Source: a virus. Taken from it: a DNA stretch of 64,000 bases. The notes beneath the pieces were generated by a model. It had not been told where the DNA came from and did not search any database. It saw only the letters and a list, made by a program, of their open reading frames with translations. Positions 2,420 to 59,022 of this stretch are shown here, piece after piece; position 1 is the stretch's first letter, and every line of letters begins with the position of its first letter. The stretch lies in the IMG/VR virus record IMGVR_UViG_3300028920_000048, one strand, 5' to 3'. A program made the translations under genes and the position numbers.

Positions 2420-2799
2420 CGATCAAACCCTGGTTTACCAAACCTGGAAAAACTTACCCAAGTTCAGAAGGGAGCCTCTCATCTCCCATAAAGAACGAGA
2501 AAACCTCTTCTCGTACTCCACCTGTACGACCAGTTGTAGGACAGGATTCGCCCAAGGGAGTCTCGCCCTTGCTAGTACCTATGGCAAGTCTTGAACTTGC
2601 TGCCAGTACCGGACCTGTGAGGTCGGCTTGTTTCGGTTTGAGAAAACAGTCCTCAAGCCACGAGTACGCCTTCTAAGTCAAAGCAGTCCCAAATTCTTCC
2701 TTCAAGGTTCAGCTTTGAGTTCTCTGACTCGTCCGACATAACCGTAAGATTTTCCAGATTTCTACAAGTTTTTATCTAGCTAATCAATCAGGCTCTTGA
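2420..2799 (-). ncRNA. Candidate structured non-coding RNA or leader (~380 nt, unassigned)
   Basis: No credible minus-strand ORF. Consecutive hairpins at 2470-2487, 2495-2514, 2521-2545, 2553-2571 and 2584-2600. Possible TTGATT-17-TAGAAA promoter near 2790-2760. Confidence 0.4.
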
Positions 2800-3630
2800 T
2801 CAGCACACATACTTATCATATTCCCGTTGAATGGTTTTGATACAATCCCTCGCACACTGGAGGTACTTTTCATGGTAGCCGTAGTTCTTTTCCATCGGCT
2901 CCATCAATCCACTCACATACGCCTCATCTTGCCAGTGTCCATGTAACATATAGACCGGCTCACCTTGGTGAGAATAAAGACCGTCATCGGTCTGTTTAAT
3001 GAACGTTTCTGGCTTCAACATCGTGTGGTGAATGTTCGTCCAAGAATAGGAACTAAGCCAGTACATCCGGGCTGACAAACCCATTGCCGCCGCAATCAGG
3101 TTAGGACAGCGCAAATCGTTTCCGCTCTGGTTAGTCCAAATTCTCTCCAAATAGTCATCAAACATGGAAGGATTGAAAAACGTCGGAACCGTACTAAATG
3201 TAGCGTGCACTTTCGAGAATCCATCAGGAACATCAATCCCGAACTCATCAAAATGATGCTGCTGAAAACGCAACATCGTGTTATCGGAGCACACAAGCAA
3301 AGTCCCGGCTTCTGCCATCCTGAAAATGTTGTCAATTGGTCGAATGAGCACCATATCAGCATCAAGCAAACCAACAACCTTGTACTGGCCGGCAAGTTGT
3401 CGAGCCAACTCAAACCTGAATGTCCGTATCCGGCGAAAGCTCGTATCGCACTCCGGCGCAAGCATGACATTGACAACCGCAATATCGTCAAACACGTCGT
3501 CGGGGAGGTCTCCTATCGTCGTTGCGTAAATTGCCGTATCCGGCATCCAAGTTGACAAGCTCTTGACCAACGCACGACCCTCGGCTTCGTATCCCCTCGT
3601 GACTGGGAAAATGAAAGCATAATCAGGCAT
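2800..3630 (-). CDS. GT-A fold glycosyltransferase (GT8-like)
   Basis: VGLLDADMVLIRPIDNIF DxD motif and C-terminal LHGHW; paralogous to 7081 and 7997. Confidence 0.7.
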   Translation of the reverse strand: MPDYAFIFPVTRGYEAEGRALVKSLSTWMPDTAIYATTIGDLPDDVFDDIAVVNVMLAPECDTSFRRIRTFRFELARQLAGQYKVVGLLDADMVLIRPIDNIFRMAEAGTLLVCSDNTMLRFQQHHFDEFGIDVPDGFSKVHATFSTVPTFFNPSMFDDYLERIWTNQSGNDLRCPNLIAAAMGLSARMYWLSSYSWTNIHHTMLKPETFIKQTDDGLYSHQGEPVYMLHGHWQDEAYVSGLMEPMEKNYGYHEKYLQCARDCIKTIQREYDKYVC

Positions 3631-4540
3631 CTACTGGCTCTCCGGTATCTTCATCTAGTTGCAATTCTGCCGTGTCTTCTTCTTGTTCTGACTCCGATTC
3701 TGGCTGCAACTCCGGCTCGGACTTTGCCATAATAGACCCCAACCAGCCGGAAACCGAACCATTGATATAGTCGCCCTTCAAGTCAACAATGGCAACCTTT
3801 TCCTTTGTATACGAAGAAATATCGTGTTCCTTCTGAAGGTAAAGCACCCTGTCAGGATACATCGACAGCGCCAAAGTCAAGGGACCGGAAGCAACACCAA
3901 TAAAGCATCGACACCGTTGAAGCAAGCCAATCAATGACGAAATCCTTGCCGAACAGCCCCGCACCGTGCTCGTAACACACGGGTATTTGACATTCATAGG
4001 ATTATGAAACATGTGTTGGTAATGCACCTCAATCGGCACAAGACCAGCACCAAGGATTTCATTCCATATCTGTCGTGCCGTGCGCTCATCACAATTGACG
4101 GACTGAGGCAATGCCGTGCCCTGAAAATGGACACCCACAAGCGGACTATCAAAGCTTGACAACTGCGCAAACTCTGACTTAATCTCCGCAGAATCAATGC
4201 CCAACTCCCGCTCACAACAATGTTCACTCTTGGTCACGCCAGAATTCTCAGCCATAAAGTAGTTCAACGAAAAAACCAAATCGTAAGCATCTTCATCCCA
4301 CTCCACCTTGCCGAAAATTTCTTCCTGACCGCTCTCGACGTACAGCGTGAAATCCACCTTCGGGTAAAGACGCACAAGCGCCTCATACGCCGGATAAAAC
4401 ATTATGGTATCGCCAAGACCGTGCCCGAAAAGAATCAGCACCTTTGCACCATCATAAAGGTGCTCAACCAGCTTCTTCTCCTTGAAGTCGTTAATCGCAT
4501 TGCTCTCTTTCGCCAACCGAGTATCTCCTTTCAACCTCAT
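3623..4540 (-). CDS. GT-B fold glycosyltransferase (GT9/heptosyltransferase-like)
   Basis: LILFGHGLGDTIMFYPAYEAL and FIGVASGPLTLA motifs; the real start may be TTG near 4516. Confidence 0.7.
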   Translation of the reverse strand: MRLKGDTRLAKESNAINDFKEKKLVEHLYDGAKVLILFGHGLGDTIMFYPAYEALVRLYPKVDFTLYVESGQEEIFGKVEWDEDAYDLVFSLNYFMAENSGVTKSEHCCERELGIDSAEIKSEFAQLSSFDSPLVGVHFQGTALPQSVNCDERTARQIWNEILGAGLVPIEVHYQHMFHNPMNVKYPCVTSTVRGCSARISSLIGLLQRCRCFIGVASGPLTLALSMYPDRVLYLQKEHDISSYTKEKVAIVDLKGDYINGSVSGWLGSIMAKSEPELQPESESEQEEDTAELQLDEDTGEPVDA

Positions 4541-8887: not shown

Positions 8888-10118
8888 GTGATTGGTTCTT
8901 TTCCTTTATCCCTGATGCACTCTGCACAGTCTTCCTCTGCACAACAACCTTCGGCCTTTTGGCAATCTCGACATTGCTCACAGGTGAAATCTCATAGTTT
9001 AAGTTGTCCATATAAAACTTCACCAAGCGACAGACATCATCCGCAGTGATCATGTCCATACACTTGGCAATTGTTTGGCCTGTCGAAAGTTTTACAGGGC
9101 ACAAACAAAGCTCCTCATCCTTGTGGTCACCATCCCCAAGTGACATAACACGTGACTTCCAGCAACCACCAAGGTCACAGCACGGAAGAAGCCCACACGT
9201 GTGAATGAACTGTTGATTCGGTCCCTGCTGCCAGTGATTCGGTTCACGACCTCCAGCAATAACAATACAAGCTCTTGAATGTCTCTGAAACCTTGGGTGC
9301 GGCGGAACGGCGTACGCCAGCATCATGGGCAAACTCACTGGAGTAATAACACCCCAAGAATTGTAGACTAAGCGAATGAGCTGCCGCAAATCGGTCTGAC
9401 CCACCATGTTGATCAAATTCTCACCCTTTAGCTCCGGGTGCACATGATTAGGATGATCAAGACCAATCTGAACGAACGTCAACTCAGGGAACCGATCTAT
9501 GATCTTTTGGTAGCGATCAAAAGCCCACTGTTTCGCCGTGTAGTCCGTTTTGTAACCAGCATCAATAATCCAGTATGGCACATTACGCTTGACCTTCTCA
9601 AAGACGGCGCTGTACCAGAAATGCTCCTGTTCCCTGATATAGATAAAGCTCTGAAAAAATGTCGGAACAATCGGAAGCCGAAGCTTGGTCTGAAGATCAA
9701 TCATCATGCCATTAAGGTAGTGGTACGGCTTCTGATTGCTCTGGTGGATTGTATCGTACGTCATGTCAATCACCATGTCAACATCCGACTCGTGAAGCGG
9801 AGTAATATACGGATTGCCCTCGAAGATAGCAGGACAAGTGGTCCTTACATCGGTCAAAAACCGACCCGGATATGTCTCGTGAAGAGACTTCAAAGCAAAT
9901 GCCATGATCACGACATCGCCAGGTGACTGAAAGTTCTTGAGAATCAACTTCGCTTGCCCCTCTGCCGAAACGCCGCCCCCGCTTGACTGGCTGAAAGAAC
10001 TTGCCTGACACACTGTTTGATCAACAACAGCGCCGTCTATGACGGGCTTGACCAAATGCCAACCACTCTGAGGCTTAAACTCCTCAACTTCCTTCGGGAC
10101 AATAACAAGTTTGCTCAC
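8820..10118 (-). CDS. GT9/ADP-heptose transferase-like glycosyltransferase with Cys-rich C-terminus
   Basis: QSPGDVVIMAFALKSLHETYPG, KQWAFDRYQ, NMVGQTDLRQLIRLV and VITPVSLPMMLA. Start reassigned to GTG 10118, which overlaps the upstream stop (GTGA). Confidence 0.8.
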   Translation of the reverse strand: MSKLVIVPKEVEEFKPQSGWHLVKPVIDGAVVDQTVCQASSFSQSSGGGVSAEGQAKLILKNFQSPGDVVIMAFALKSLHETYPGRFLTDVRTTCPAIFEGNPYITPLHESDVDMVIDMTYDTIHQSNQKPYHYLNGMMIDLQTKLRLPIVPTFFQSFIYIREQEHFWYSAVFEKVKRNVPYWIIDAGYKTDYTAKQWAFDRYQKIIDRFPELTFVQIGLDHPNHVHPELKGENLINMVGQTDLRQLIRLVYNSWGVITPVSLPMMLAYAVPPHPRFQRHSRACIVIAGGREPNHWQQGPNQQFIHTCGLLPCCDLGGCWKSRVMSLGDGDHKDEELCLCPVKLSTGQTIAKCMDMITADDVCRLVKFYMDNLNYEISPVSNVEIAKRPKVVVQRKTVQSASGIKEKNQSRGRKKKPRRRRKKNKGRRTKSR

Positions 10119-46478: not shown

Positions 46479-46571
46479 TGGCGGAGGAGGTGGGACTCGA
46501 ACCCACAGCCCGCAGTTGCCTACGACCTACCTGTTTTCGAGACAGGCTCCTCATCCAGCCGGTTCTCCTCC
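46479..46571 (-). tRNA. tRNA-Ser(CGA), atypical; near-duplicate body of tRNA-Ser(GGA)
   Basis: GCCTGT-CT-CGA-AA-ACAGGT; GCCA end. Confidence 0.85.
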
Positions 46572-46579
46572 GCTCTCAT

Positions 46580-46882
46580 CTAATCCCTCTTGGGAACAAG
46601 ATCAAACCGACGTGACTTGAACTCTTCCAGTCGGATTTCCGGGCTGCTGGCGATCTCGAAAAGAGGAAACACGACCTTCTTTGGTTTCGGAATGAACACG
46701 AAATTATACGGATAGACAACCTTGTTCAACTCACGCCACAACCGTCCACACCTACGGACCCAATAATCACGTTCAGCCCGGTCTCTTGGAAGCAACACAC
46801 GAAGCGCCATTCCCAAAACCGACACACGTCTACCAAACCAAAGGATCATGTCTTTCTCTGCTTCAATGAAGTATATGTTCAT
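46580..46882 (-). CDS. Small protein carrying a 31-aa copy of a major capsid protein segment
   Basis: KPKKVVFPLFEIASSPEIRLEEFKSRRFDLV versus MCP KPKRVQFPLFEIASNPEIQLTEIKSRRFDLV; ATGA-coupled to the upstream gene. Confidence 0.75.
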   Translation of the reverse strand: MNIYFIEAEKDMILWFGRRVSVLGMALRVLLPRDRAERDYWVRRCGRLWRELNKVVYPYNFVFIPKPKKVVFPLFEIASSPEIRLEEFKSRRFDLVPKRD

Positions 46883-47376
46883 CTCTCCAAAACGTGCCAC
46901 GTCCAGCACTGCTCTCCGACATGCTCCGAACCTTCAATCCGAAAGCCATGTCTTAGGAACAACCTGATCGAGGCTTGGTTCATCGCCCAAATCCTCGCCA
47001 CGTGTGAACCCGGATACATCGCCAGTGCGAAGCTAAGCAACAAACTCCCGAAACCTTTACCCTGCTTGCCCTTGAAGACCGTAATGCCGGTGATGTAGTT
47101 AAACTTCCTTCGACCGAAAATCGACAGAAAACGCTTCAAAATATCAGCATCGTCCGTCTCCTCCATCGCCCGAAAAGCGGGCATCTTCATCCTCAAAACC
47201 TGAACATTCCCAATCCAGCAGTCGTCAGCCCCGACAAGAAGCCAACTATGAACACCCTCGTTGTATAACCGAAGATAAGAAGCTTCCGAAAACTGAGAAT
47301 GAGGCGGGTAACACTCCTTGTCTTGCTTCGACAAACGAGCCCAGTCGGAATCATTGTCCATCAGTGCGAAACGCAT
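46879..47376 (-). CDS. GNAT-family acetyltransferase
   Basis: ITVFKGKQGKGFGSLLL (motif A) and NQASIRLFLRHGF (motif B). Confidence 0.85.
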   Translation of the reverse strand: MRFALMDNDSDWARLSKQDKECYPPHSQFSEASYLRLYNEGVHSWLLVGADDCWIGNVQVLRMKMPAFRAMEETDDADILKRFLSIFGRRKFNYITGITVFKGKQGKGFGSLLLSFALAMYPGSHVARIWAMNQASIRLFLRHGFRIEGSEHVGEQCWTWHVLER

Positions 47377-47773
47377 CACGCCACCTCTCAGGCTGCATGG
47401 CAACAAATACAGTGTAACTGTCTATGTCCAAAAGACCGCCGCCGTCTGGATGAGGATCATGCACGACCTTGCCGTCACGACCGACGCAAGCGTGCATCAA
47501 ACCCCTCGGACTTGTGCCCGAAACGATGTAATAAGGACCAAACTCGCCATAAAGGCTAATCCAAGGAAACGGCTCTTCACAGCGAAAGTCGTGCAACCCA
47601 ACGCCGCAGTACCTCAAAAGCCACTCATTGCTGTCAGCAAACCACGTGTCGCTCGGGAAATCCACACAGAAGTTCGGCAAGTTACCAAGCGGAACTTCCA
47701 AGATTGAAGCCACGCAAGCTGCAAAACAGTCGCCCTTGCCGTCGCCAAACTTGGTCTGCATTACTGGCTTCAA
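47351..47773 (-). CDS. Papain/C39-like Cys-His peptidase-fold hypothetical protein
   Basis: GDCFAACVASIL...GLMHACV...HDPHP. Confidence 0.5.
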   Translation of the reverse strand: MKPVMQTKFGDGKGDCFAACVASILEVPLGNLPNFCVDFPSDTWFADSNEWLLRYCGVGLHDFRCEEPFPWISLYGEFGPYYIVSGTSPRGLMHACVGRDGKVVHDPHPDGGGLLDIDSYTVFVAMQPERWRDAFRTDGQ

Positions 47774-50817: not shown

Positions 50818-50846
50818 ATTCTACACGATCACGGAGATTCTGTCAA
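50818..50846 (-). promoter_or_regulatory. Sigma70-type promoter
   Basis: TTGACA - 17 bp - TAGAAT. Confidence 0.85.
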
Positions 50847-51061: not shown

Positions 51062-52177
51062 CTATGACTCCTTTCGTTTTCCTGACGGCAAAGCCAAGCC
51101 ACCTCTATGACCAACAACGTAATATTCTCGCATTGGATTAACCACCCAATGATCATCTTGATCTTGTTGAACCCACCCAGCCGATGGAGCCGATGGTACT
51201 TGTCCAGGACGAAGAAGACGCCAAGACCCGCCACCTGCCTTATCACTAACATAAATACTACAACCAGCAGCCCACAACTTCGAGGCCCTCACTCTAAGCA
51301 ACGGACGATCCCCTACTGGCAAATCATGACCACGCTCGTCCGCCCAAAACCTTCCTCCAGGAACCGGACCCTTTACTATTCTCTTACGTCCCTTCGGCAC
51401 ACCCGGATAACGAACAAGCCAAAAATCCCCGGCCATTCTCTCTGTTCCCAAAACCAAAAACTTAGCAACTTTAAGCAACCGTCTCGCCAGTCTGACATTG
51501 CCGTCAAACACTTGACAAGCATCAAAAGCCTGAACAAAACCATACCGAACATCCATACGTTTTTTGAGGGCAACACCTTCTGGAGTCATCATTCCCCACT
51601 GAACATTAGCCTTACCATACTCGTCATAAAGTTTCTTCATCAAGGCTTCGCCAATGCCTATACGACGATAGTTTTTGTTAACGAAGATATAGTTGACATG
51701 AATCTTGCCATCAAACTCGGAGTATTCCACGTAACCAAGCACTTTCCTGTCCGCTGCACTTGTCGCAGTCATGCAAAGATCAGTCTGCCCGTGATGCGAG
51801 CCCGTCACCTCTTCGTTGAACACCGGAATTGGTTGACTTTCAACACTAGGCATGAACTTTTTCAAGGCGTTTACAACAGTTTGATCAGCTTTCCCATGCG
51901 GACGATGCTTCCCAATCATCGGACGACCACCCTTCCACGCTGCAATACCATTTCCGCCCATCCAAAGACCGTCCAACGTTTTCCCGTCCGTATAGAGCTT
52001 CTTACTCTCGGCTCGCTTGCCGCCCAAAAACGCCTCAAGCACCTTCTTATCGCCCTTTGTCAACCGCACAAAAGCTTTCCTATCCTCTAAAAACCTCAGA
52101 ACAAACTTCAATTGCCTCAGCAACGCCATCCAAAGGCTCATCATGTTCAAGAGCCAACCGACGCAAAATCCAATCAC
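51062..52177 (-). CDS. Multidomain protein with a GNAT acetyltransferase domain and an internal leader motif (start probably GTG 52069)
   Basis: VNYIFVNKNYRRIGIGEALM (GNAT motif A); NVRLARRLLKVAKFLVLGT between domains. Confidence 0.75.
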   Translation of the reverse strand: MIGFCVGWLLNMMSLWMALLRQLKFVLRFLEDRKAFVRLTKGDKKVLEAFLGGKRAESKKLYTDGKTLDGLWMGGNGIAAWKGGRPMIGKHRPHGKADQTVVNALKKFMPSVESQPIPVFNEEVTGSHHGQTDLCMTATSAADRKVLGYVEYSEFDGKIHVNYIFVNKNYRRIGIGEALMKKLYDEYGKANVQWGMMTPEGVALKKRMDVRYGFVQAFDACQVFDGNVRLARRLLKVAKFLVLGTERMAGDFWLVRYPGVPKGRKRIVKGPVPGGRFWADERGHDLPVGDRPLLRVRASKLWAAGCSIYVSDKAGGGSWRLLRPGQVPSAPSAGWVQQDQDDHWVVNPMREYYVVGHRGGLALPSGKRKES

Positions 52178-52438: not shown

Positions 52439-53128
52439 TCAGAAATCAGAATTGAAAATGTTACGACCCTTAACACCATTCTTAAGCAGATAGCTCTTTT
52501 CAATTTTCATTCGACGCCACACCAGCTTCAAATCAGCCTCATTCTTATGCAGCCATACCTTCTTGCCCTGAAAAGACAACCAAGGATGATAAGACGTCTG
52601 AATCAAAAAACCTCGATCAAAAATCCTCGTGACGACTTTACGATCCAAAATCCACACCTCATCACGGATATAGACAATGACCCAAGCGTGCAAATTCGAC
52701 ACATGCTCCGGACCATTTGTGCCCACAACAAAACGAGCGTCATAACCACGCTTCCATAAAACACTATAGCACAAAAACATTGCCCAATCCTTACATATCC
52801 CACCACCATTTCGCACGAACTCTGTTGGCGTCATAATCTGAACAGGATACAAAGCCACAAAATTGAAATGAGCAAGCATAAAGTCCCTGGACTTCTGCAA
52901 CACGAAAATGTCATCCGCACCTGTGACATTAAACTCAAAACCATGCTTCTCCCAAAACTCATAATACGGACGATACGGACGCCTTGCATAACCGATCTCC
53001 CGCCCCCACCAATCGGCAAAAATCATCCGCCTCAGCATAACAGGCTCTTGCTCCTGCTCTTGCTGCGATACACAACCCATCACAAACACAACAAGCCACA
53101 AAAAACATGTTAAAGTGGCAATTTTCAT
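52439..53128 (-). CDS. Transglutaminase-like Cys-His-Asp lipoprotein
   Basis: Lipoprotein-type signal (LVVFVMG-C); GGICKDWA...LHAWV...WILD triad. Confidence 0.7.
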   Translation of the reverse strand: MKIATLTCFLWLVVFVMGCVSQQEQEQEPVMLRRMIFADWWGREIGYARRPYRPYYEFWEKHGFEFNVTGADDIFVLQKSRDFMLAHFNFVALYPVQIMTPTEFVRNGGGICKDWAMFLCYSVLWKRGYDARFVVGTNGPEHVSNLHAWVIVYIRDEVWILDRKVVTRIFDRGFLIQTSYHPWLSFQGKKVWLHKNEADLKLVWRRMKIEKSYLLKNGVKGRNIFNSDF

Positions 53129-53183
53129 AAGCCGTTGCGTCTCCTCTATAGACCATAAAACAAACTGTCTAGTACGGCAATAG

Positions 53184-53195
53184 ATATAAGAAAAA
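53184..53195 (-). promoter_or_regulatory. Candidate late-promoter motif TTTTTCTTATAT
   Basis: Same motif as 43195 and 59091, in an intergenic gap. Confidence 0.45.
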
Positions 53196-53208
53196 TCTAC
53201 GTCAAGCA

Positions 53209-55236
53209 TCACGGCTTCTGATACACCAGTATAGGTTCAAGGCGCACAGCCCCATCGAACACCGACTTGTACCTCATAGAGTGCGTGTCAACGTACCTGG
53301 CAACTTGACGCAATACTACCTGAGCATCATCAAGAAGCAAATACTTTCTGTCACCAATAGTCACATCAGCAATGTTCAGCACCAAATAACCACCAGATAC
53401 CAACAATCCAGCAGACTTAGTTATCAAACGCTCAAGAAACTTAACACGCCACTCATCATAAGTCGAATAACGGTTATGGCTTATACAATCATCGTCGCCA
53501 TACCACTCCTTCGTATAGTAAGGCGGAGACGTGAAAACCACATCATATTGTTCATCTCCAATATCCACATCCTCAAAAGCCCCGTACCTTATGTCCACCG
53601 TCTTTCCTGGAATATCCCTACTCAAAATGCACCGCATGTGCTTCAAGCCCTTCACCGTTTCCCCACAAGCATCTACACCTGTATAACTGCCAGCCTGCGA
53701 CACATAGAAGCCAAGCAACCGCCCCCCAAAACCAGCACACGGGTCTAACACGCTACCACCACTCGGACAGTACCTATCCCAAATCGCCTTAGCAATCGCA
53801 GGACGAAAATTGTACACACCACCAAATGACGAACGCATCTCATTTCGCAAAGCTGATGACGACACAGAGTCACGATACTTCAATGTCCTAACAACTGCCT
53901 TCTCAAGTAGCCCAACATTACCAAACACATTCAATGGACTCTTCCCGCCATTTCGATGAGCCCTCCATAACGACGGAAAAAAACACGCACAAACACTAGA
54001 ACCCGCATTGTAACCAGAATCTATTGGCTCATCCAAAATCACATCAGTCCCCCGAAGTCTCGCAACTTCAACTGCCCTGTCCTTTTTCTTCATCTTTGGG
54101 TAAGGAAATCCACGAATCTGCCACATTTTTGTTATCTTAGCAACCAAACACGAATCATCAGCATCAGATGCACCATAACGCCCAATCGAGCGATACACCG
54201 GTACAAGATCAACACAGGCGTTAAACGGAAGGCAAAAACGCAAACTAACGGGAACCTTGTACTGCATGGACTCATGTAGGTGCTCACCTATAACATCAAA
54301 AACTTTTTGCTTGTTATCCAACCACAAAATAACACCACCATCCGAACGCCACTGCACTCTCGTATCAAACGTAAACCGCCGGTTCAGACCATCAGCAATC
54401 AACTCAGCATCATCACGAAACGCATTGATACACAGTGTGAACCGCCCATCAAGACTGCAATCACTCAAATGTCCATCATCCATATACCAAACAGCCAACG
54501 AAAGAGGCGTTACATTGTCAATCATCCCTTCAGGAAATCTTTTCTTTCCACCCTCGGAATAAAACATCTCATAATATGGGACAAACACAGAATGAAAACA
54601 TGTCACAAAACACCTACCATGACAAACTCTATCATCACCAAGCACTTTTTCTGTTGCCCTCACGCGCTTAGAAAACGGTCTCAATATATCGCGTTTCCAT
54701 CTGAGATACAACTCCTGATTACAACTATGACCCTCTTTGAACCTCGCAACATCACCTGCCTTGCTGATATGCACATTCGCATCGCCAAGCAATGACCCAA
54801 CGACAATCTCGTGTTGACCCTGCGTCAGCGAGTTTGGCAAATCCGCTCGAATATGCTGCCCCTTCGACATTGCAACAATACCAAACTCCTTGAGCCGCGT
54901 CCGCACCAACATTCGACTACACCCAAACCGTTTTGCTAATCGACGCTCTCCCAAACCTTGATACAACTTCTCTAATTCACCCTTCGACACAGCATTGATG
55001 TCCTGACGTCCAGATCGTCTTGCCTTAGCAGCTATCCGATCACGAGCCTTTATCGTTACAATCCCATACTTCCTCCTGTAATAGCCAACAGCAACATCAG
55101 TCAACCCAAATCGCCCAGCAATCTCAGCATCGGATAACAACAACTCCTCGTACAGCTTTCTCAACACATCCTCCGCCAATCCGTGGTCCTTGTGTGTCCT
55201 CTTATCAGACATGGCATCTCCAATCAACTTAATCAT
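53209..55236 (-). CDS. Fusion of HTH repeats, LAGLIDADG endonuclease and amino-(N4/N6) DNA methyltransferase
   Basis: IVVGSLLGDANV and LAVWYMDDG (LAGLIDADG_2); VLDPCAGFGGRL (motif I) and VFTSPPY (motif IV). Confidence 0.8.
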   Translation of the reverse strand: MIKLIGDAMSDKRTHKDHGLAEDVLRKLYEELLLSDAEIAGRFGLTDVAVGYYRRKYGIVTIKARDRIAAKARRSGRQDINAVSKGELEKLYQGLGERRLAKRFGCSRMLVRTRLKEFGIVAMSKGQHIRADLPNSLTQGQHEIVVGSLLGDANVHISKAGDVARFKEGHSCNQELYLRWKRDILRPFSKRVRATEKVLGDDRVCHGRCFVTCFHSVFVPYYEMFYSEGGKKRFPEGMIDNVTPLSLAVWYMDDGHLSDCSLDGRFTLCINAFRDDAELIADGLNRRFTFDTRVQWRSDGGVILWLDNKQKVFDVIGEHLHESMQYKVPVSLRFCLPFNACVDLVPVYRSIGRYGASDADDSCLVAKITKMWQIRGFPYPKMKKKDRAVEVARLRGTDVILDEPIDSGYNAGSSVCACFFPSLWRAHRNGGKSPLNVFGNVGLLEKAVVRTLKYRDSVSSSALRNEMRSSFGGVYNFRPAIAKAIWDRYCPSGGSVLDPCAGFGGRLLGFYVSQAGSYTGVDACGETVKGLKHMRCILSRDIPGKTVDIRYGAFEDVDIGDEQYDVVFTSPPYYTKEWYGDDDCISHNRYSTYDEWRVKFLERLITKSAGLLVSGGYLVLNIADVTIGDRKYLLLDDAQVVLRQVARYVDTHSMRYKSVFDGAVRLEPILVYQKP

Positions 55237-55373: not shown

Positions 55374-55410
55374 AAAAAAAGGACCAAGCCCCGAGCAGAG
55401 GCTTGGTCCT
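55374..55410 (-). terminator. Rho-independent terminator after the major capsid gene
   Basis: GGACCAAGCC/GGCTTGGTCC stem plus T7. Confidence 0.9.
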
Positions 55411-55443: not shown

Positions 55444-56313
55444 TTACGTGCGGGTAATCTGGAGAACCTGAAGAGCGTAAGGGTTATAAGCCCCGATGCC
55501 CAAGTTCTCAAACATACTAAAGCCGATGAGCCTGTTCTTCGGATCATCTGCCGACAAAACCGTAAGTTCTGTGCGCACTGGAACGCGCCCGAAGAACTCG
55601 GGTTCACCGCAAACATACACGGTCCCCTCAGGAACAATACGACTGACGATCAACTTGGCACCCCACAGAATCGCCATCAAACCAGTGTTCAACAAGCGAG
55701 CCTGCGTCTCGATGTCAAGGGTATCGCGGTCCCACTTACGCAAGTCCGCATAATCCTTGGCATTAAGGAACACGTTGGCGACCCTCATGTCCGTCCTCTC
55801 GACGTTCGCAAAAGCGTCTGCCAGAGAATTGGCCGTGAGGTTTCCGGTCACCGGAATGATCGGATTCGGGTTCGTCGGATCAGCAGCCAGAGCATCCATA
55901 ACGGCGAAGACCTTGCGATCCTCTTCCGCCTGAATCTCGGACTTGCCGAGGTCGACCGAGCGCTCAACGAGATCGAACCGGCGAGATTTGATCTCAGTAA
56001 GCTGGATTTCCGGGTTACTGGCGATCTCAAAGAGAGGGAACTGCACCCGCTTGGGCTTCGCAACGGCGACGATGTTCTCGCCTTCCTCGCCGATCACGTA
56101 CGCCGTAATGTTGGGGTCTTTGTCGTAAATAGGCAGAGCGCCATCGGGCAGTTGCTCGACGTAAAACGCCTTACGACCCACGGACGAATAATCACGACGC
56201 CGCCTCAAAGGCTGGATCATACTCGCCGCAAGCCGCTGCCGACCGGCAGCCGTGCGGATGTACCGTGAAATAACACGGTTTTTCGTCTTATTGGAGACTC
56301 GTCTCCTTGCCAT
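55444..56313 (-). CDS. Major capsid protein (HK97 fold)
   Basis: Follows protease, scaffold and decoration genes and is followed by a strong terminator. Motifs (QRLAASMIQP, FEIASNPEI, PEGTVYVCGEPEFFG) resemble, from memory, Bxz1-like mycobacteriophage capsids. Confidence 0.9.
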   Translation of the reverse strand: MARRRVSNKTKNRVISRYIRTAAGRQRLAASMIQPLRRRRDYSSVGRKAFYVEQLPDGALPIYDKDPNITAYVIGEEGENIVAVAKPKRVQFPLFEIASNPEIQLTEIKSRRFDLVERSVDLGKSEIQAEEDRKVFAVMDALAADPTNPNPIIPVTGNLTANSLADAFANVERTDMRVANVFLNAKDYADLRKWDRDTLDIETQARLLNTGLMAILWGAKLIVSRIVPEGTVYVCGEPEFFGRVPVRTELTVLSADDPKNRLIGFSMFENLGIGAYNPYALQVLQITRT

Positions 56314-56382: not shown

Positions 56383-56886
56383 TCAAATACGCTCATCAAG
56401 CCCCAATGTGGGCGAAGCCGTCGATGGAGCCTTCGTCACGATGCCGATAACCGTGCCTTCGGTACTAAGCTCGTTAGTCAAGAAGTTCTGTGCAGAGCAG
56501 TAAAGCTTCTCGCCAACGGCATACGTCAGGTCAGCAGTATCAGCAGCGTTTCTCGTCTCGTAAACATCGACCTCACATGACGACTGCCCTTTTACAATGG
56601 CGATCTTGTTCGACGCCACGGCGGGGCTGTTGTCAAAAGCCGCTCCGGCAGCATCATTGGCGAACAACCCAACGGGCATCAGCTCGTCAGTACACGGGAC
56701 CACAGTGTAGTCCAATCCGGCGCTCAAACCAGCGACGGAGCCACCGAGCACACCACGGGGCGTGTTGATGCTCAAAGTGTCGTTGGTGTTGACCCCATAA
56801 TTGGCCTTCGTGAAGCAGGTCTCATGCAGTTCGGGGATGCTGTCCATTTGAGCCCGAATCAACAGGAAAAGTGCCATACTTTTCAC
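56383..56886 (-). CDS. Putative head decoration protein
   Basis: Small Ala/Thr/Gly-rich beta protein directly upstream of the MCP. Confidence 0.65.
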   Translation of the reverse strand: MKSMALFLLIRAQMDSIPELHETCFTKANYGVNTNDTLSINTPRGVLGGSVAGLSAGLDYTVVPCTDELMPVGLFANDAAGAAFDNSPAVASNKIAIVKGQSSCEVDVYETRNAADTADLTYAVGEKLYCSAQNFLTNELSTEGTVIGIVTKAPSTASPTLGLDERI

Positions 56887-56927: not shown

Positions 56928-58253
56928 TCAGTCGTCAAACACATCGGAAACGTCGGGAACATCATCCCAAATCTTGCTAATGCTACGAATTTCGTCGTCC
57001 ACACCACCACTGTTGGCAAGACGGGCCTGCCCGCCCAACCGACGCACACCTTTCTTACCCTCACGACCCTTGGCCTTGCGGCTTTGCTTACGAGAAGACT
57101 TGCGACTCGACTTCTTCGCAACTGGCTCTTCCTCTTCGTCATCTTCGTCATCAACATCGCCGCCGAAAATCACGCTCAGAAGCTCGTCATCGGAAGCCGT
57201 CACGTCTTCGTCGTCTTCAGCTTCCTCGTCCTCATCCTGAGCTGCCTCGACTTCCTCTTCATCGTCATCATCTTCGTCGTCTTCGGCATAAAGAGAAGCC
57301 AGAAGCTCAGACTCTTCCTCGCTCATGTCGATCTCGTCACCAAGTCCAGCCGTCAACTCAATATCAAGCTCGTCTTCCTCTTCGTCTTCGTCTTCCTCTT
57401 CGTCTTCGTCTTCGTCTTGCGAACGACGAGACTTTGCCTTTTTCGACTTCTTAGAAGCAGTCTCTTCTTCGTCTTCGTCTTCCTCTTCCTCTTCGTCTTG
57501 CGAACGACGAGACTTTGCCTTTTTCGACTTCTTAGAAGCAGTCTCTTCTTCCTCTTCGTCGTCTTCATCTTCATCCTGCGAACGATGAGACTTTGCCTTT
57601 TTCGACTTCTTAGAAGCAGTTTCCTCTTCCTCTTCGTCTTCGTCTTCGTCTTCCTGCGCCGTCTCGACCTCTTCTTCCTCGTCGTCTTCGTCGTCTTCAT
57701 CTTCATCCTGCGAACGACGAGACTTTGCCTTTTTCGACTTCTTAGAAGCAGTTTCCTCTTCCTCTTCCTCTTCCTCTTCCTCTTCATCTTCGTCTTCCTG
57801 CGCCGTCTCAACCTCTTCCTCTTCAAGGTCTTCATCTTCATCGTCGTCGTCCTGCGCATACAACTCTTCCGTCGCAGCCCAACGCTTCAAGGCACTGTCA
57901 AGACGCCTATTGCCGAGACGCACGAAGTCCTTCGCCTGTTCCTCAACTACTTCGTCATCAGCCTTGTCACCCAAAAGCAACACAGCTAAACGAACGGACT
58001 TCTGAGCCGCCGTCCTGATTGCTGCAACCCTCGGAATACCAAAACCGATTTCGTCACGCTGGTCTTCCTTCCACTCGTGCCGAAGGTCCGGCAGAGGATG
58101 GTTAACCGTTTCCACGTAGTTGTCGTACTGATCACGAGTCTTGAAGCGACGACCCGGTTGATTCACAGTGCCGGGGTAGGGAATGGCGTCTTCGACAGCC
58201 TTGCGGTCCCTTGCGCGCCGCCTGTCCGTCAACCTGATTCTCTTTCTCGCCAT
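56928..58253 (-). CDS. Acidic scaffold-like protein with basic/acidic repeats
   Basis: ATG 58253 after GGAGG; four ETASKKSKKAKS(R/H)RSQDE blocks between poly-Asp/Glu tracts. Confidence 0.75.
   Translation of the reverse strand: MARKRIRLTDRRRARDRKAVEDAIPYPGTVNQPGRRFKTRDQYDNYVETVNHPLPDLRHEWKEDQRDEIGFGIPRVAAIRTAAQKSVRLAVLLLGDKADDEVVEEQAKDFVRLGNRRLDSALKRWAATEELYAQDDDDEDEDLEEEEVETAQEDEDEEEEEEEEEEETASKKSKKAKSRRSQDEDEDDEDDEEEEVETAQEDEDEDEEEEETASKKSKKAKSHRSQDEDEDDEEEEETASKKSKKAKSRRSQDEEEEEDEDEEETASKKSKKAKSRRSQDEDEDEEEDEDEEEDELDIELTAGLGDEIDMSEEESELLASLYAEDDEDDDDEEEVEAAQDEDEEAEDDEDVTASDDELLSVIFGGDVDDEDDEEEEPVAKKSSRKSSRKQSRKAKGREGKKGVRRLGGQARLANSGGVDDEIRSISKIWDDVPDVSDVFDD
57415..57760 (-). repeat. Four imperfect copies of a basic block within acidic tracts
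   Basis: CGAACGACGAGACTTTGCCTTTTTCGACTTCTTAGAAGCAGT repeated on the + strand. Confidence 0.9.
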
Positions 58254-58305
58254 CTTTTCACACCTCCGTAAGGCTTCTGGTAGATGGAACCGATTCAGAA
58301 CACCA

Positions 58306-59022
58306 TCACCTGCGGGCCGAAGCCACAACACGGCGAACCTGACTCGCAACTCTCTTGCTGTTCAGGTCGATCTGATCGGACAACTTGTCGATGCGAAGAG
58401 CAAGGTCAGCACGGCCATTCTTCTCAAGGTAGTTGGCAATGCCTTCCAGTTTAACAGACGCCTTCCGCATGGTGGCAACCTTCGCCTTGGCTGCCTGAAC
58501 AATGTCAACAGTTGGAACCTCATCGCCAAGTTCATCAGAAACTTCATCAAACGGCATCTCAATTTCATCCTCGATCCCGTAATCCGTCTCGCTTGACGTA
58601 ACGTCGTCTTCGTCCTCGTCCTCGTCTTCGTCCTCGTCTTCGTCGTCTTCGGCATACATGCCCATACTCTCAATGGCGAGGTCTTCCTCGTCCATCATCT
58701 CAACGTCTTCCTCGCCCATCATGTCGAGGTCGTCGTCCTGAGCATAGTCCATGCCCTCCATGTCCTCGTCCTCCCCTTCAAGCATGGCTTCAAGCTCATC
58801 GAGTTCATCCTGAGCATAATCCATACCCTCCATATCCTCCACATCCTCGTCCTGCCCCTCAAGCATGGCCTCAAGCTCGGCCAGCTCGGCATGGACATCA
58901 CGCTGTGCAACCCTGCGACGGCGACCACCAGAAGCCTTGCGACTTCTCTTAGAAATCACCTTGTCCAGCTTGTCGATCTCGGCGAGCAGAGCACGCCTTT
59001 GCCTCGCAGCACTTCTCCTCAT
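58306..59022 (-). CDS. Second acidic scaffold-like protein
   Basis: Duplicated ELEAMLEG.DED..MEGMDYAQD unit; basic termini. Confidence 0.7.
   Translation of the reverse strand: MRRSAARQRRALLAEIDKLDKVISKRSRKASGGRRRRVAQRDVHAELAELEAMLEGQDEDVEDMEGMDYAQDELDELEAMLEGEDEDMEGMDYAQDDDLDMMGEEDVEMMDEEDLAIESMGMYAEDDEDEDEDEDEDEDDVTSSETDYGIEDEIEMPFDEVSDELGDEVPTVDIVQAAKAKVATMRKASVKLEGIANYLEKNGRADLALRIDKLSDQIDLNSKRVASQVRRVVASARR

Follow-up and report, generated by a model that had tools for sequence, protein, structure and literature searches.

Within the 64-kb window, by which we mean the whole stretch of viral DNA that was analysed, a small accessory ORF lies on the minus strand at 46580..46882 (100 aa plus stop, protein P0014, as given by the ORF list and its translation); an alternative GTG start at 46909, also on the minus strand, would give a product of 109 aa (P0001). 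The ATG of the small ORF overlaps the TGA of the upstream GNAT acetyltransferase gene (46879..47406, minus strand; Pfam PF00583, E 1.4e-6) as ATGA, and 11 nt past its stop begins tRNA-Ser(cga) (46479..46568, minus strand; ARAGORN), the first of three tandem tRNA-Ser genes. All neighbours are encoded on the same strand. The initial annotation had located the gene in a tRNA and accessory island, which agrees with the 12 tRNA genes that we found between 45590 and 50568. This minus-strand island includes four tRNA-Ser genes (anticodons tga, gct, gga and cga), three of which stand in tandem with adjacent copies about 80% identical, and it is interleaved with small ORFs and two GNAT genes (46879-47406 and 51062-52177). 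A near-consensus promoter-like site was detected at 50846..50818 and a transglutaminase-like protease gene at 52439-53212.

The major capsid protein (MCP) gene is located 8.5 kb from the small ORF, at 55444..56313 on the minus strand. It is intact in one frame and encodes a 289 aa protein (P0013) of the phage G gp27 type, which matches phrog_2522 'major head protein' (E 1.6e-55), NCBIfam NF042927 and, found by sequence only, the phage G gp27 capsid protein of PDB 6WKK (E 6e-77, profile positions 2-279). MCPs 86-90% identical to it are encoded on many IMG/VR contigs of up to 253 kb, while others, on contigs of up to 467 kb, are 64-72% identical. Across the many large-phage contigs of the closer group (55444-56313 versus L001-L066) synonymous sites are saturated. 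Taken together, the compared sequences indicate an unusually strong protein-level constraint on the phage G-type MCP. Directly after the MCP gene follows a terminator-like hairpin (55380..55410, minus strand; a 13-bp stem, then a T run). This strong hairpin, read 55410..55380, divides the head genes from the accessory and tRNA block that holds the small ORF, which thus lies behind the MCP terminator. Upstream of the decoration-like and MCP genes, an extremely acidic protein of 473 aa is encoded (56928-58349, minus strand). Its gene contains a 78-81-nt tandem repeat (3.4 copies at 57385-57658) that encodes Asp/Glu runs alternating with 'SKKSKKAKSRRSQ'-type basic blocks, and the protein is likely the scaffolding protein. 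Between this scaffold candidate and the MCP gene, a 167-aa ORF (56383-56886, minus strand) weakly matches Phage_cement_2 (E 0.019) and occupies the place that decoration protein gp26 has in phage G.

The C-terminal part of the small protein is derived from the capsid protein. BLASTP aligned its aa 60-96 (46595..46705, minus strand) with MCP aa 80-116 (55966..56076 in the MCP gene, minus strand), 27 of the 37 residues being identical (E 7e-16). The 31-residue core with 25 identities that had been reported initially was recovered in the same BLASTP comparison, and the 13 synonymous changes counted among these 25 residues are correct within the 31 codons. Over all 37 positions, 12 codons are identical, 15 differ synonymously and 10 non-synonymously. 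The DNA likeness between the two genes is confined to 98 nt (74.5%), and together with the 15 synonymous versus 10 non-synonymous differences it upholds the earlier view of conservation at the protein level rather than a recent DNA duplication. Judging from its sequence, the capsid copy is old. An MCP profile recognised the small ORF with 40.4 bits (hmmsearch, i-E 2e-13, profile positions 75-112), and all nine positions conserved across the family described below are kept (F-P..F-E...P.I......R-R-F). The NCBIfam NF042927 profile of HK97-fold MCPs scored only 12.5 bits, at positions 82-110 of 280; this is under the curated cut-off of 80 bits and no full-length match was obtained, so the small protein is not itself an HK97-fold MCP. 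A PHROG match of the small ORF was not found, and tblastn with the MCP detected no other MCP pieces in the whole window (next match E 0.24, opposite strand).

The closest MCP of the module is the phage's own. At the protein level, it shares 27 of 37 residues with the own MCP and at most 26 of 37 with any other among about 80 related MCPs; at the DNA level, the own gene reaches 72% and the relatives listed at most about 70%. In a segment tree the module falls inside the clade with its own MCP, on a long branch. We had considered S110 and V116 as markers of this origin and dropped them, both residues being present in other MCPs and small ORFs as well. The evidence for an own-MCP origin is therefore restricted to the overall nearest neighbour and the tree placement.

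The N-terminal 59 aa (46706..46882, minus strand) are of a different kind. That the rest of the ORF is unrelated to the capsid had been noted before and is supported by a Smith-Waterman comparison with the MCP (score 22 versus a shuffle mean of 25, p 0.83). The same shuffle test (p 0.83) spoke against a degenerate MCP C-terminal region, for which 'ILW.G' and 'YPYNF' had been considered. AlphaFold2 with the family alignment (mean pLDDT 73.6, pTM 0.37) predicted a helical hairpin in this part, with helices at 3-30 and 35-56 (pLDDT 76-87), behind which the capsid module (pLDDT about 70) extends as an unpaired tail whose only helix is short (aa 85-90). The module ends 4 residues before the stop. 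No homologue of the N-terminal part was found by exhaustive HMMER among 1.84 billion representatives, by word-index search, in the ESM Atlas or among the family leaders, and in the collections searched neither this part nor the whole small ORF has a homologue outside this one phage. A Tat-like leader was also considered and rejected: a profile of 11 family leaders ranked the small ORF 96 of 431 window frames, and neither TIGR01409 nor PF10518 matched it, which places it outside the Tat-leader subclass.

The small ORF has the features of a real accessory gene. On a codon-usage score that was trained with the window's long ORFs, its frame reached 0.30 and the non-capsid part alone 0.27; the long ORFs themselves scored 0.21 +/- 0.15, off frames about -0.5 and the remaining five frames of the small ORF between -0.60 and 0.04. 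The protein was called identically on three public assemblies. A search for expression data led to a single sequencing run with this stretch, a marine-sediment DNA metagenome. We use the term mini-gene for stand-alone ORFs of <180 aa that lie outside the head module and are co-oriented and coupled with accessory genes, and the small ORF has all of these properties.

The initial annotation had named a decaying recombination scar, with its best match to the MCP of another phage and disrupted flanks, as one of the findings that would refute its interpretation. On the sequence evidence, the small ORF is not a decaying capsid-gene copy or recombination scar, because its own MCP is the nearest MCP, no further MCP pieces or broken frames occur nearby, the frame-specific codon usage is gene-like with the non-capsid part included, the start is coupled by the ATGA overlap, and the nine family-conserved positions are spared by all 10 amino-acid changes (p 0.038). 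Further MCP likeness in the flanks was absent in any frame, as were stops and frameshifts. An exon of an intron-split MCP gene was rejected as well, since no group I intron flanks the small ORF and the MCP gene of the window is intact in one frame.

Whether the small ORF itself is under selection is harder to judge. Between module and own MCP, the Nei-Gojobori method gave dN 0.185 and dS 1.61. However, the relatives' MCPs (86-90% protein identity) likewise differ at 14-27 of about 34 synonymous codons in the segment, and a fragment taken from a related MCP would look the same even if the small ORF were free of selection. A low ratio may thus be inherited from the donor MCP lineage, and the pairwise dN/dS is no proof of selection. 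The earlier argument from synonymous changes hence holds for conservation of the protein, but does not extend to selection on the small ORF, which is inseparable from selection in the donor MCP lineage. Substitutions that avoid the conserved positions are an independent, suggestive and modest sign of selection on the small ORF at the sequence level. The search for homologues and dN/dS proposed at the outset was productive in part: modules turned up in many small ORFs, one pair of them under purifying selection, but in the collections searched the small ORF itself had no diverged orthologue.

What the initial annotation had missed is that the borders of the segment coincide with group I intron sites of relatives. 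Their MCP genes carry introns after G75, at 79/80, at 115/116 and at 118/119, and numerous fragmentary MCPs in the databases end after G75 (170 contigs carry one such fragment), at 79/80, 115/116 or 118/119. The module of the window, N80..V116, has the size and the borders of the exon between sites 79/80 and 115/116. The related loci L091 and L092 have their MCP gene in four exons (aa 6-32, 33-46, 47-115 and 116-288; L091 3450-6962) that are 87-90% identical. Rfam detected a group I intron in L091 (51.4 bits, 3520-3851), and LAGLIDADG (LAGLIDADG_2) genes reside in two other intervening sequences of both loci. In the window, a LAGLIDADG-methyltransferase fusion ORF of 675 aa (53209-55236, minus strand) lies directly downstream of the MCP terminator. 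It comprises DNA-binding or HNH-like N-terminal repeats, a LAGLIDADG domain (phrog_11023, E 2e-22) and a DNA methyltransferase-like C-terminal region (phrog_12517/67). Such a free-standing endonuclease beside the most conserved gene may cut the MCP genes of relatives.

Since the module borders are intron sites and a LAGLIDADG gene stands beside the MCP gene, endonuclease-linked capture of a fragment is plausible as the mutational origin of the module. In both respects it resembles exon co-conversion or ectopic capture by group I introns and homing endonucleases. It differs in that the small ORF has no flanking intron or endonuclease remnant (Rfam found tRNAs only), and such capture explains an origin, not a maintenance. 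It could bias which piece is caught repeatedly, but it does not explain the borders of other family members (84-90 on the N-terminal side, up to 143 on the C-terminal side), their common leaders or purifying selection.

The small ORF could then be a neutral by-product, namely an exon-sized MCP fragment that endonuclease cuts at the intron sites 79/80 and 115/116 had freed or laid bare, captured in a chance open frame, so that the capsid part is functionless. The homology of exactly N80..V116, the intron and LAGLIDADG genes between the relatives' exons, the endonuclease gene next to the MCP gene of the window, the orphan status of the small ORF and a dN/dS that may stem from the donor all fit this explanation. 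We nevertheless consider it unlikely for the small ORF: the frame is open, gene-like and ATGA-coupled, the 10 substitutions avoid the conserved core (p 0.04), no remnant of an intron or endonuclease lies beside the gene, and the same module is kept in many small genes, with one family clearly purifying and borders that are not all intron sites.

Exhaustive HMMER with the small protein returned several short proteins in which foreign sequence flanks this MCP stretch. A profile search (A2) gave 72 proteins, from which plain MCP fragments were set apart; about 22 other small ORFs of 58-175 aa remained, in which MCP aa ~84-118 (some to 143) are joined to unrelated flanks. Their conserved pattern reads [KR]xV-x-F-P-[LMT]-F-E-I-x-S-x-P-x-I-x-L-x-E-I-K-x-R-R-F, and hhalign aligned the small-ORF family to MCP 79-150 of the MCP family (probability 99.7%). 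Wherever the surroundings are known, the small ORFs stand alone, in many cases with translational coupling, and have accessory or replication genes as neighbours. P0010 is found near genes for Cpn10, a caspase-like peptidase, an HD_4 hydrolase, EndoV and CYTH, P0011 near GIY-YIG and 2OG-oxygenase genes, and P0078 near Mom-like, NADAR and papain-like genes; P0062 is the middle one of three coupled small genes, and nine contigs of up to 476 kb carry P0042. The latter is an orthologue of P0011, to which it is 51% identical over the full length, with dN/dS of 0.24 for the full length, 0.37 for the leader and 0.14 for the module (dS is saturated). By these sequence-derived ratios, both are working genes under whole-length purifying selection. 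Relatives of P0042 were not found in IMG/VR.

Among large relatives the trait is sporadic. In 80 related IMG/VR loci there was no second MCP copy near the MCP gene, and nine large relatives searched as a whole (5 IMG/VR genomes, phage G, LR745208, Myrna and Stormageddon) have none either, which makes the gene dispensable. Judging from the tree, mini-genes were born on at least three separate occasions or were re-matched repeatedly to their cognate MCP (window, Tunturi_5 and P0010), and the tree also contains an older clade made only of small ORFs. At the P0010 locus (L082 1-805), collinear MCP pieces (aa 11-68, 84-118 and 114-143) lie in three successive ORFs with a TGA stop and a frameshift between them, and a similar leucine-rich tail comes after each piece; E-loop and axial domain are absent there. 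A further locus encodes two small paralogues (L081 1-312 and 914-1159) that resemble MCPs lacking the axial domain, in that strand or spine-helix pieces run straight into MCP aa ~222-250 ('EEFVCRV').

One carrier is in culture. The Tunturiibacter phage Tunturi_5 (308.7 kb, PP885688.1) gave a second match, gp172, besides its MCP gp334. This protein of 97 aa is annotated as hypothetical, and the block around its gene includes DnaB-like helicase, SbcD and exonuclease genes; the paper on the Tunturi phages contains no proteomics and leaves gp172 unmentioned. In gp172, 5 residues separate the module from the stop, and the module shares 23 of 29 residues with the phage's own MCP (dN 0.18, dS 0.70), including lineage-specific residues common to both, and it groups with gp334 in the tree. 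The module thus tracks the residues of the cognate MCP in both genomes for which the two genes are known (window and Tunturi_5). In addition, gp172 residues 33-61 match MCP 266-294 (score 71 versus a shuffle maximum of 45), a second and older piece in permuted order. The leader of gp172 is of the TRRQFF type.

Other parts of the capsid protein are used in the same manner, and ORFs adjoining several family members carry other MCP pieces. At L085 6001-7089, each of three adjacent genes combines a twin-arginine-like leader with a different piece, in the non-collinear order aa 88-143, 251-270 and 5-73; further weak MCP-like pieces were seen at 2679-3107 and 9069-9488 of this locus. In about 29 small ORFs revealed by a control profile search (A5), the MCP N-arm (aa ~6-78) follows a foreign stretch of at least 20 residues; P0120 and P0146, the two whose context was inspected, are stand-alone genes rather than first exons. 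Leaders recur with different pieces. Tat-like RR leaders are joined to the strand piece in P0011, P0042 and gp172 and to the N-arm in P0118, P0122, P0146, P0156, P0159, P0167 and P0175; the 'MEHD..II.TS' leader is found with the strand piece in P0062 and with the N-arm in P0165, P0168 and P0173, and 'MWRKWR..GAV' with the strand piece in P0045 and the N-arm in P0143. A C-terminal tail, 'L.G.L..L..D', is common to family members as well. The curated Tat model stayed below its cut-off for P0042 (13 versus 16.7 bits), so export of the Tat-like subclass is only putative. The N-terminal part of the window's small ORF resembles no other family leader. In sum, the family uses the N-arm, the post-E-loop strand with the start of the spine helix, and C-terminal P-domain strands, while the axial domain or E-loop occurred in none of the family ORFs examined.

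From the general HK97 fold, we take MCP aa 80-116 to comprise the end of the E-loop return strand, the next strand and the first turns of the long 'spine' helix. Mapping the segment on a model of the MCP, as had been suggested, did not succeed: AlphaFold2 with a 22-row alignment reached a mean pLDDT of 56, with values below 50 across the segment, and the model was too poor for this purpose; it starts a helix near aa 105, with low confidence there. The stretch of aa ~84-118 ranks 120 of 259 in MCP conservation. It is not the most conserved part of the protein, and its recurrence is therefore not simply the survival of the most recognisable piece. In the general fold, strand and helix start are presumably accessible in the free MCP subunit and covered in the shell by the E-loop of a neighbour, so that a free-standing copy would imitate unassembled capsid protein. 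Two partners are plausible for such a copy, a capsid-protein sensor of the host or the MCP or scaffold itself. The two putative roles put forward in the initial annotation, a decoy that titrates a capsid-sensing defence and a dominant-negative inhibitor of capsid assembly in related phages, would correspond to these partners.

We propose, giving it somewhat less than an even chance, that the small ORF encodes an orphan helical part with an exposed copy of MCP 80-116 that mimics unassembled MCP, likely against a host capsid sensor. The accessory region probably took up a piece of the MCP gene about the size of an exon, with homing-endonuclease or intron sites at its ends. The helical N-terminal part would present the piece as an exposed, extended copy, this free copy would imitate newly made, unassembled MCP, and the mimic would occupy a protein that otherwise binds that surface of the MCP. 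The most likely partner would be a host defence sensor reading capsid protein, towards which the small protein may act as decoy or antagonist. Such a decoy or antagonist is the function we tentatively favour, well short of certainty, because the family lies in accessory blocks, is sporadic, changes fast except for the capsid piece and uses several MCP pieces. Against it stands that a decoy binding a sensor might be expected to trigger it, and that Tat-like leaders in part of the family would put the piece outside the cytoplasm. A complex prediction of MCP and small protein scored 0.00, which counts neither for nor against binding.

Capsid-sensing immunity is established, and Lit, with the Gol peptide, and CapRel read short MCP motifs (PMC9712102; bioRxiv 10.64898/2026.01.04.697583), while the likewise established sensors Avs7, Avs8, Avs10 and Dsr1 wrap the whole capsid fold. 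Lit with the Gol peptide of T4 gp23 and CapRel (PMC9712102) thus share with the mini-genes that a short stretch of an HK97-fold capsid protein can be read by another protein. Since such a stretch is readable as a unit, there is a logic for a decoy. This likeness leaves aside where the stretch sits within the fold, and it ends at the gene: the peptide read by Lit or CapRel is part of the MCP and triggers defence, whereas the mini-gene copy is separately encoded.

A second explanation is that the small protein modulates or interferes with assembly, its MCP piece binding to MCP, to capsomer edges (e.g. the E-loop) or to the scaffold. Assembly of the own capsid would be delayed or capped, or co-infecting relatives, whose MCPs are about 90% identical, would be poisoned; the extreme conservation of the MCP across many large phages makes such cross-poisoning conceivable. 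The pieces used by the family are, as far as general HK97 knowledge allows us to infer, inter-subunit and scaffold-contact parts, and conservation in the small ORFs falls largely on positions that are also conserved among MCPs. Blocking assembly is moreover a known strategy. Tab (PMC10884400) and Tai (PMC11364771) are, according to the accessible text of these reports, small proteins of mobile elements whose target is the assembly of structural proteins. By the same text they are carried by prophages, satellites (PICIs) or defence islands and act on tails, and it does not describe them as fragments of their target protein. On the other hand, the module follows its own MCP, which implies self-poisoning unless timing or localisation prevents it, and Tat-like leaders would take the piece away from the assembly site. 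We regard a role in assembly as rather improbable on balance.

The small protein might also be targeted to the capsid, the MCP piece co-assembling with MCP or scaffold so that the protein is packaged as a minor or ejected component. T4 internal proteins carry capsid-targeting sequences, and the analogy to these would fit a module that is predicted to form an exposed tail at the very C-terminus. Several family members of 58-68 aa, however, contain little beyond the module and thus have no cargo to deliver, and we consider a targeting tag very improbable.

Literature searches found no phage-encoded copy of a capsid fragment acting as a decoy, and no Pfam, PHROG, NCBIfam or PDB family covers the mini-proteins beyond a partial match to the MCP. 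The T4 gp24 vertex protein is a full-length MCP paralogue that is used as an accessory capsid protein. The mini-genes share with such paralogues an origin by duplication of the MCP gene, but the small ORF has kept only 37 residues, is fused to an unrelated part and cannot adopt the HK97 fold. In the literature and family libraries searched, capsid-fragment mini-proteins are thus an undescribed class.

We suggest, with clear reservations, that large phages carry a modular class of mini-genes in which fragments of their own capsid protein are combined with interchangeable leaders and serve to disarm capsid-sensing immunity or to control or sabotage assembly, the small ORF of the window being an independently born member. 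Capsid proteins are now known as major triggers of bacterial immunity. If the mini-proteins are decoys, they would embody a counter-defence principle of a new kind and could serve to identify the epitopes read by sensors; if they modulate assembly, a new type of regulator, or of weapon between phages, would exist for very large capsids. Since Tunturi_5 with its gp172 is in culture, the question is directly testable. Finally, the module borders at intron sites point to homing endonucleases as possible makers of new genes from pieces of essential ones.
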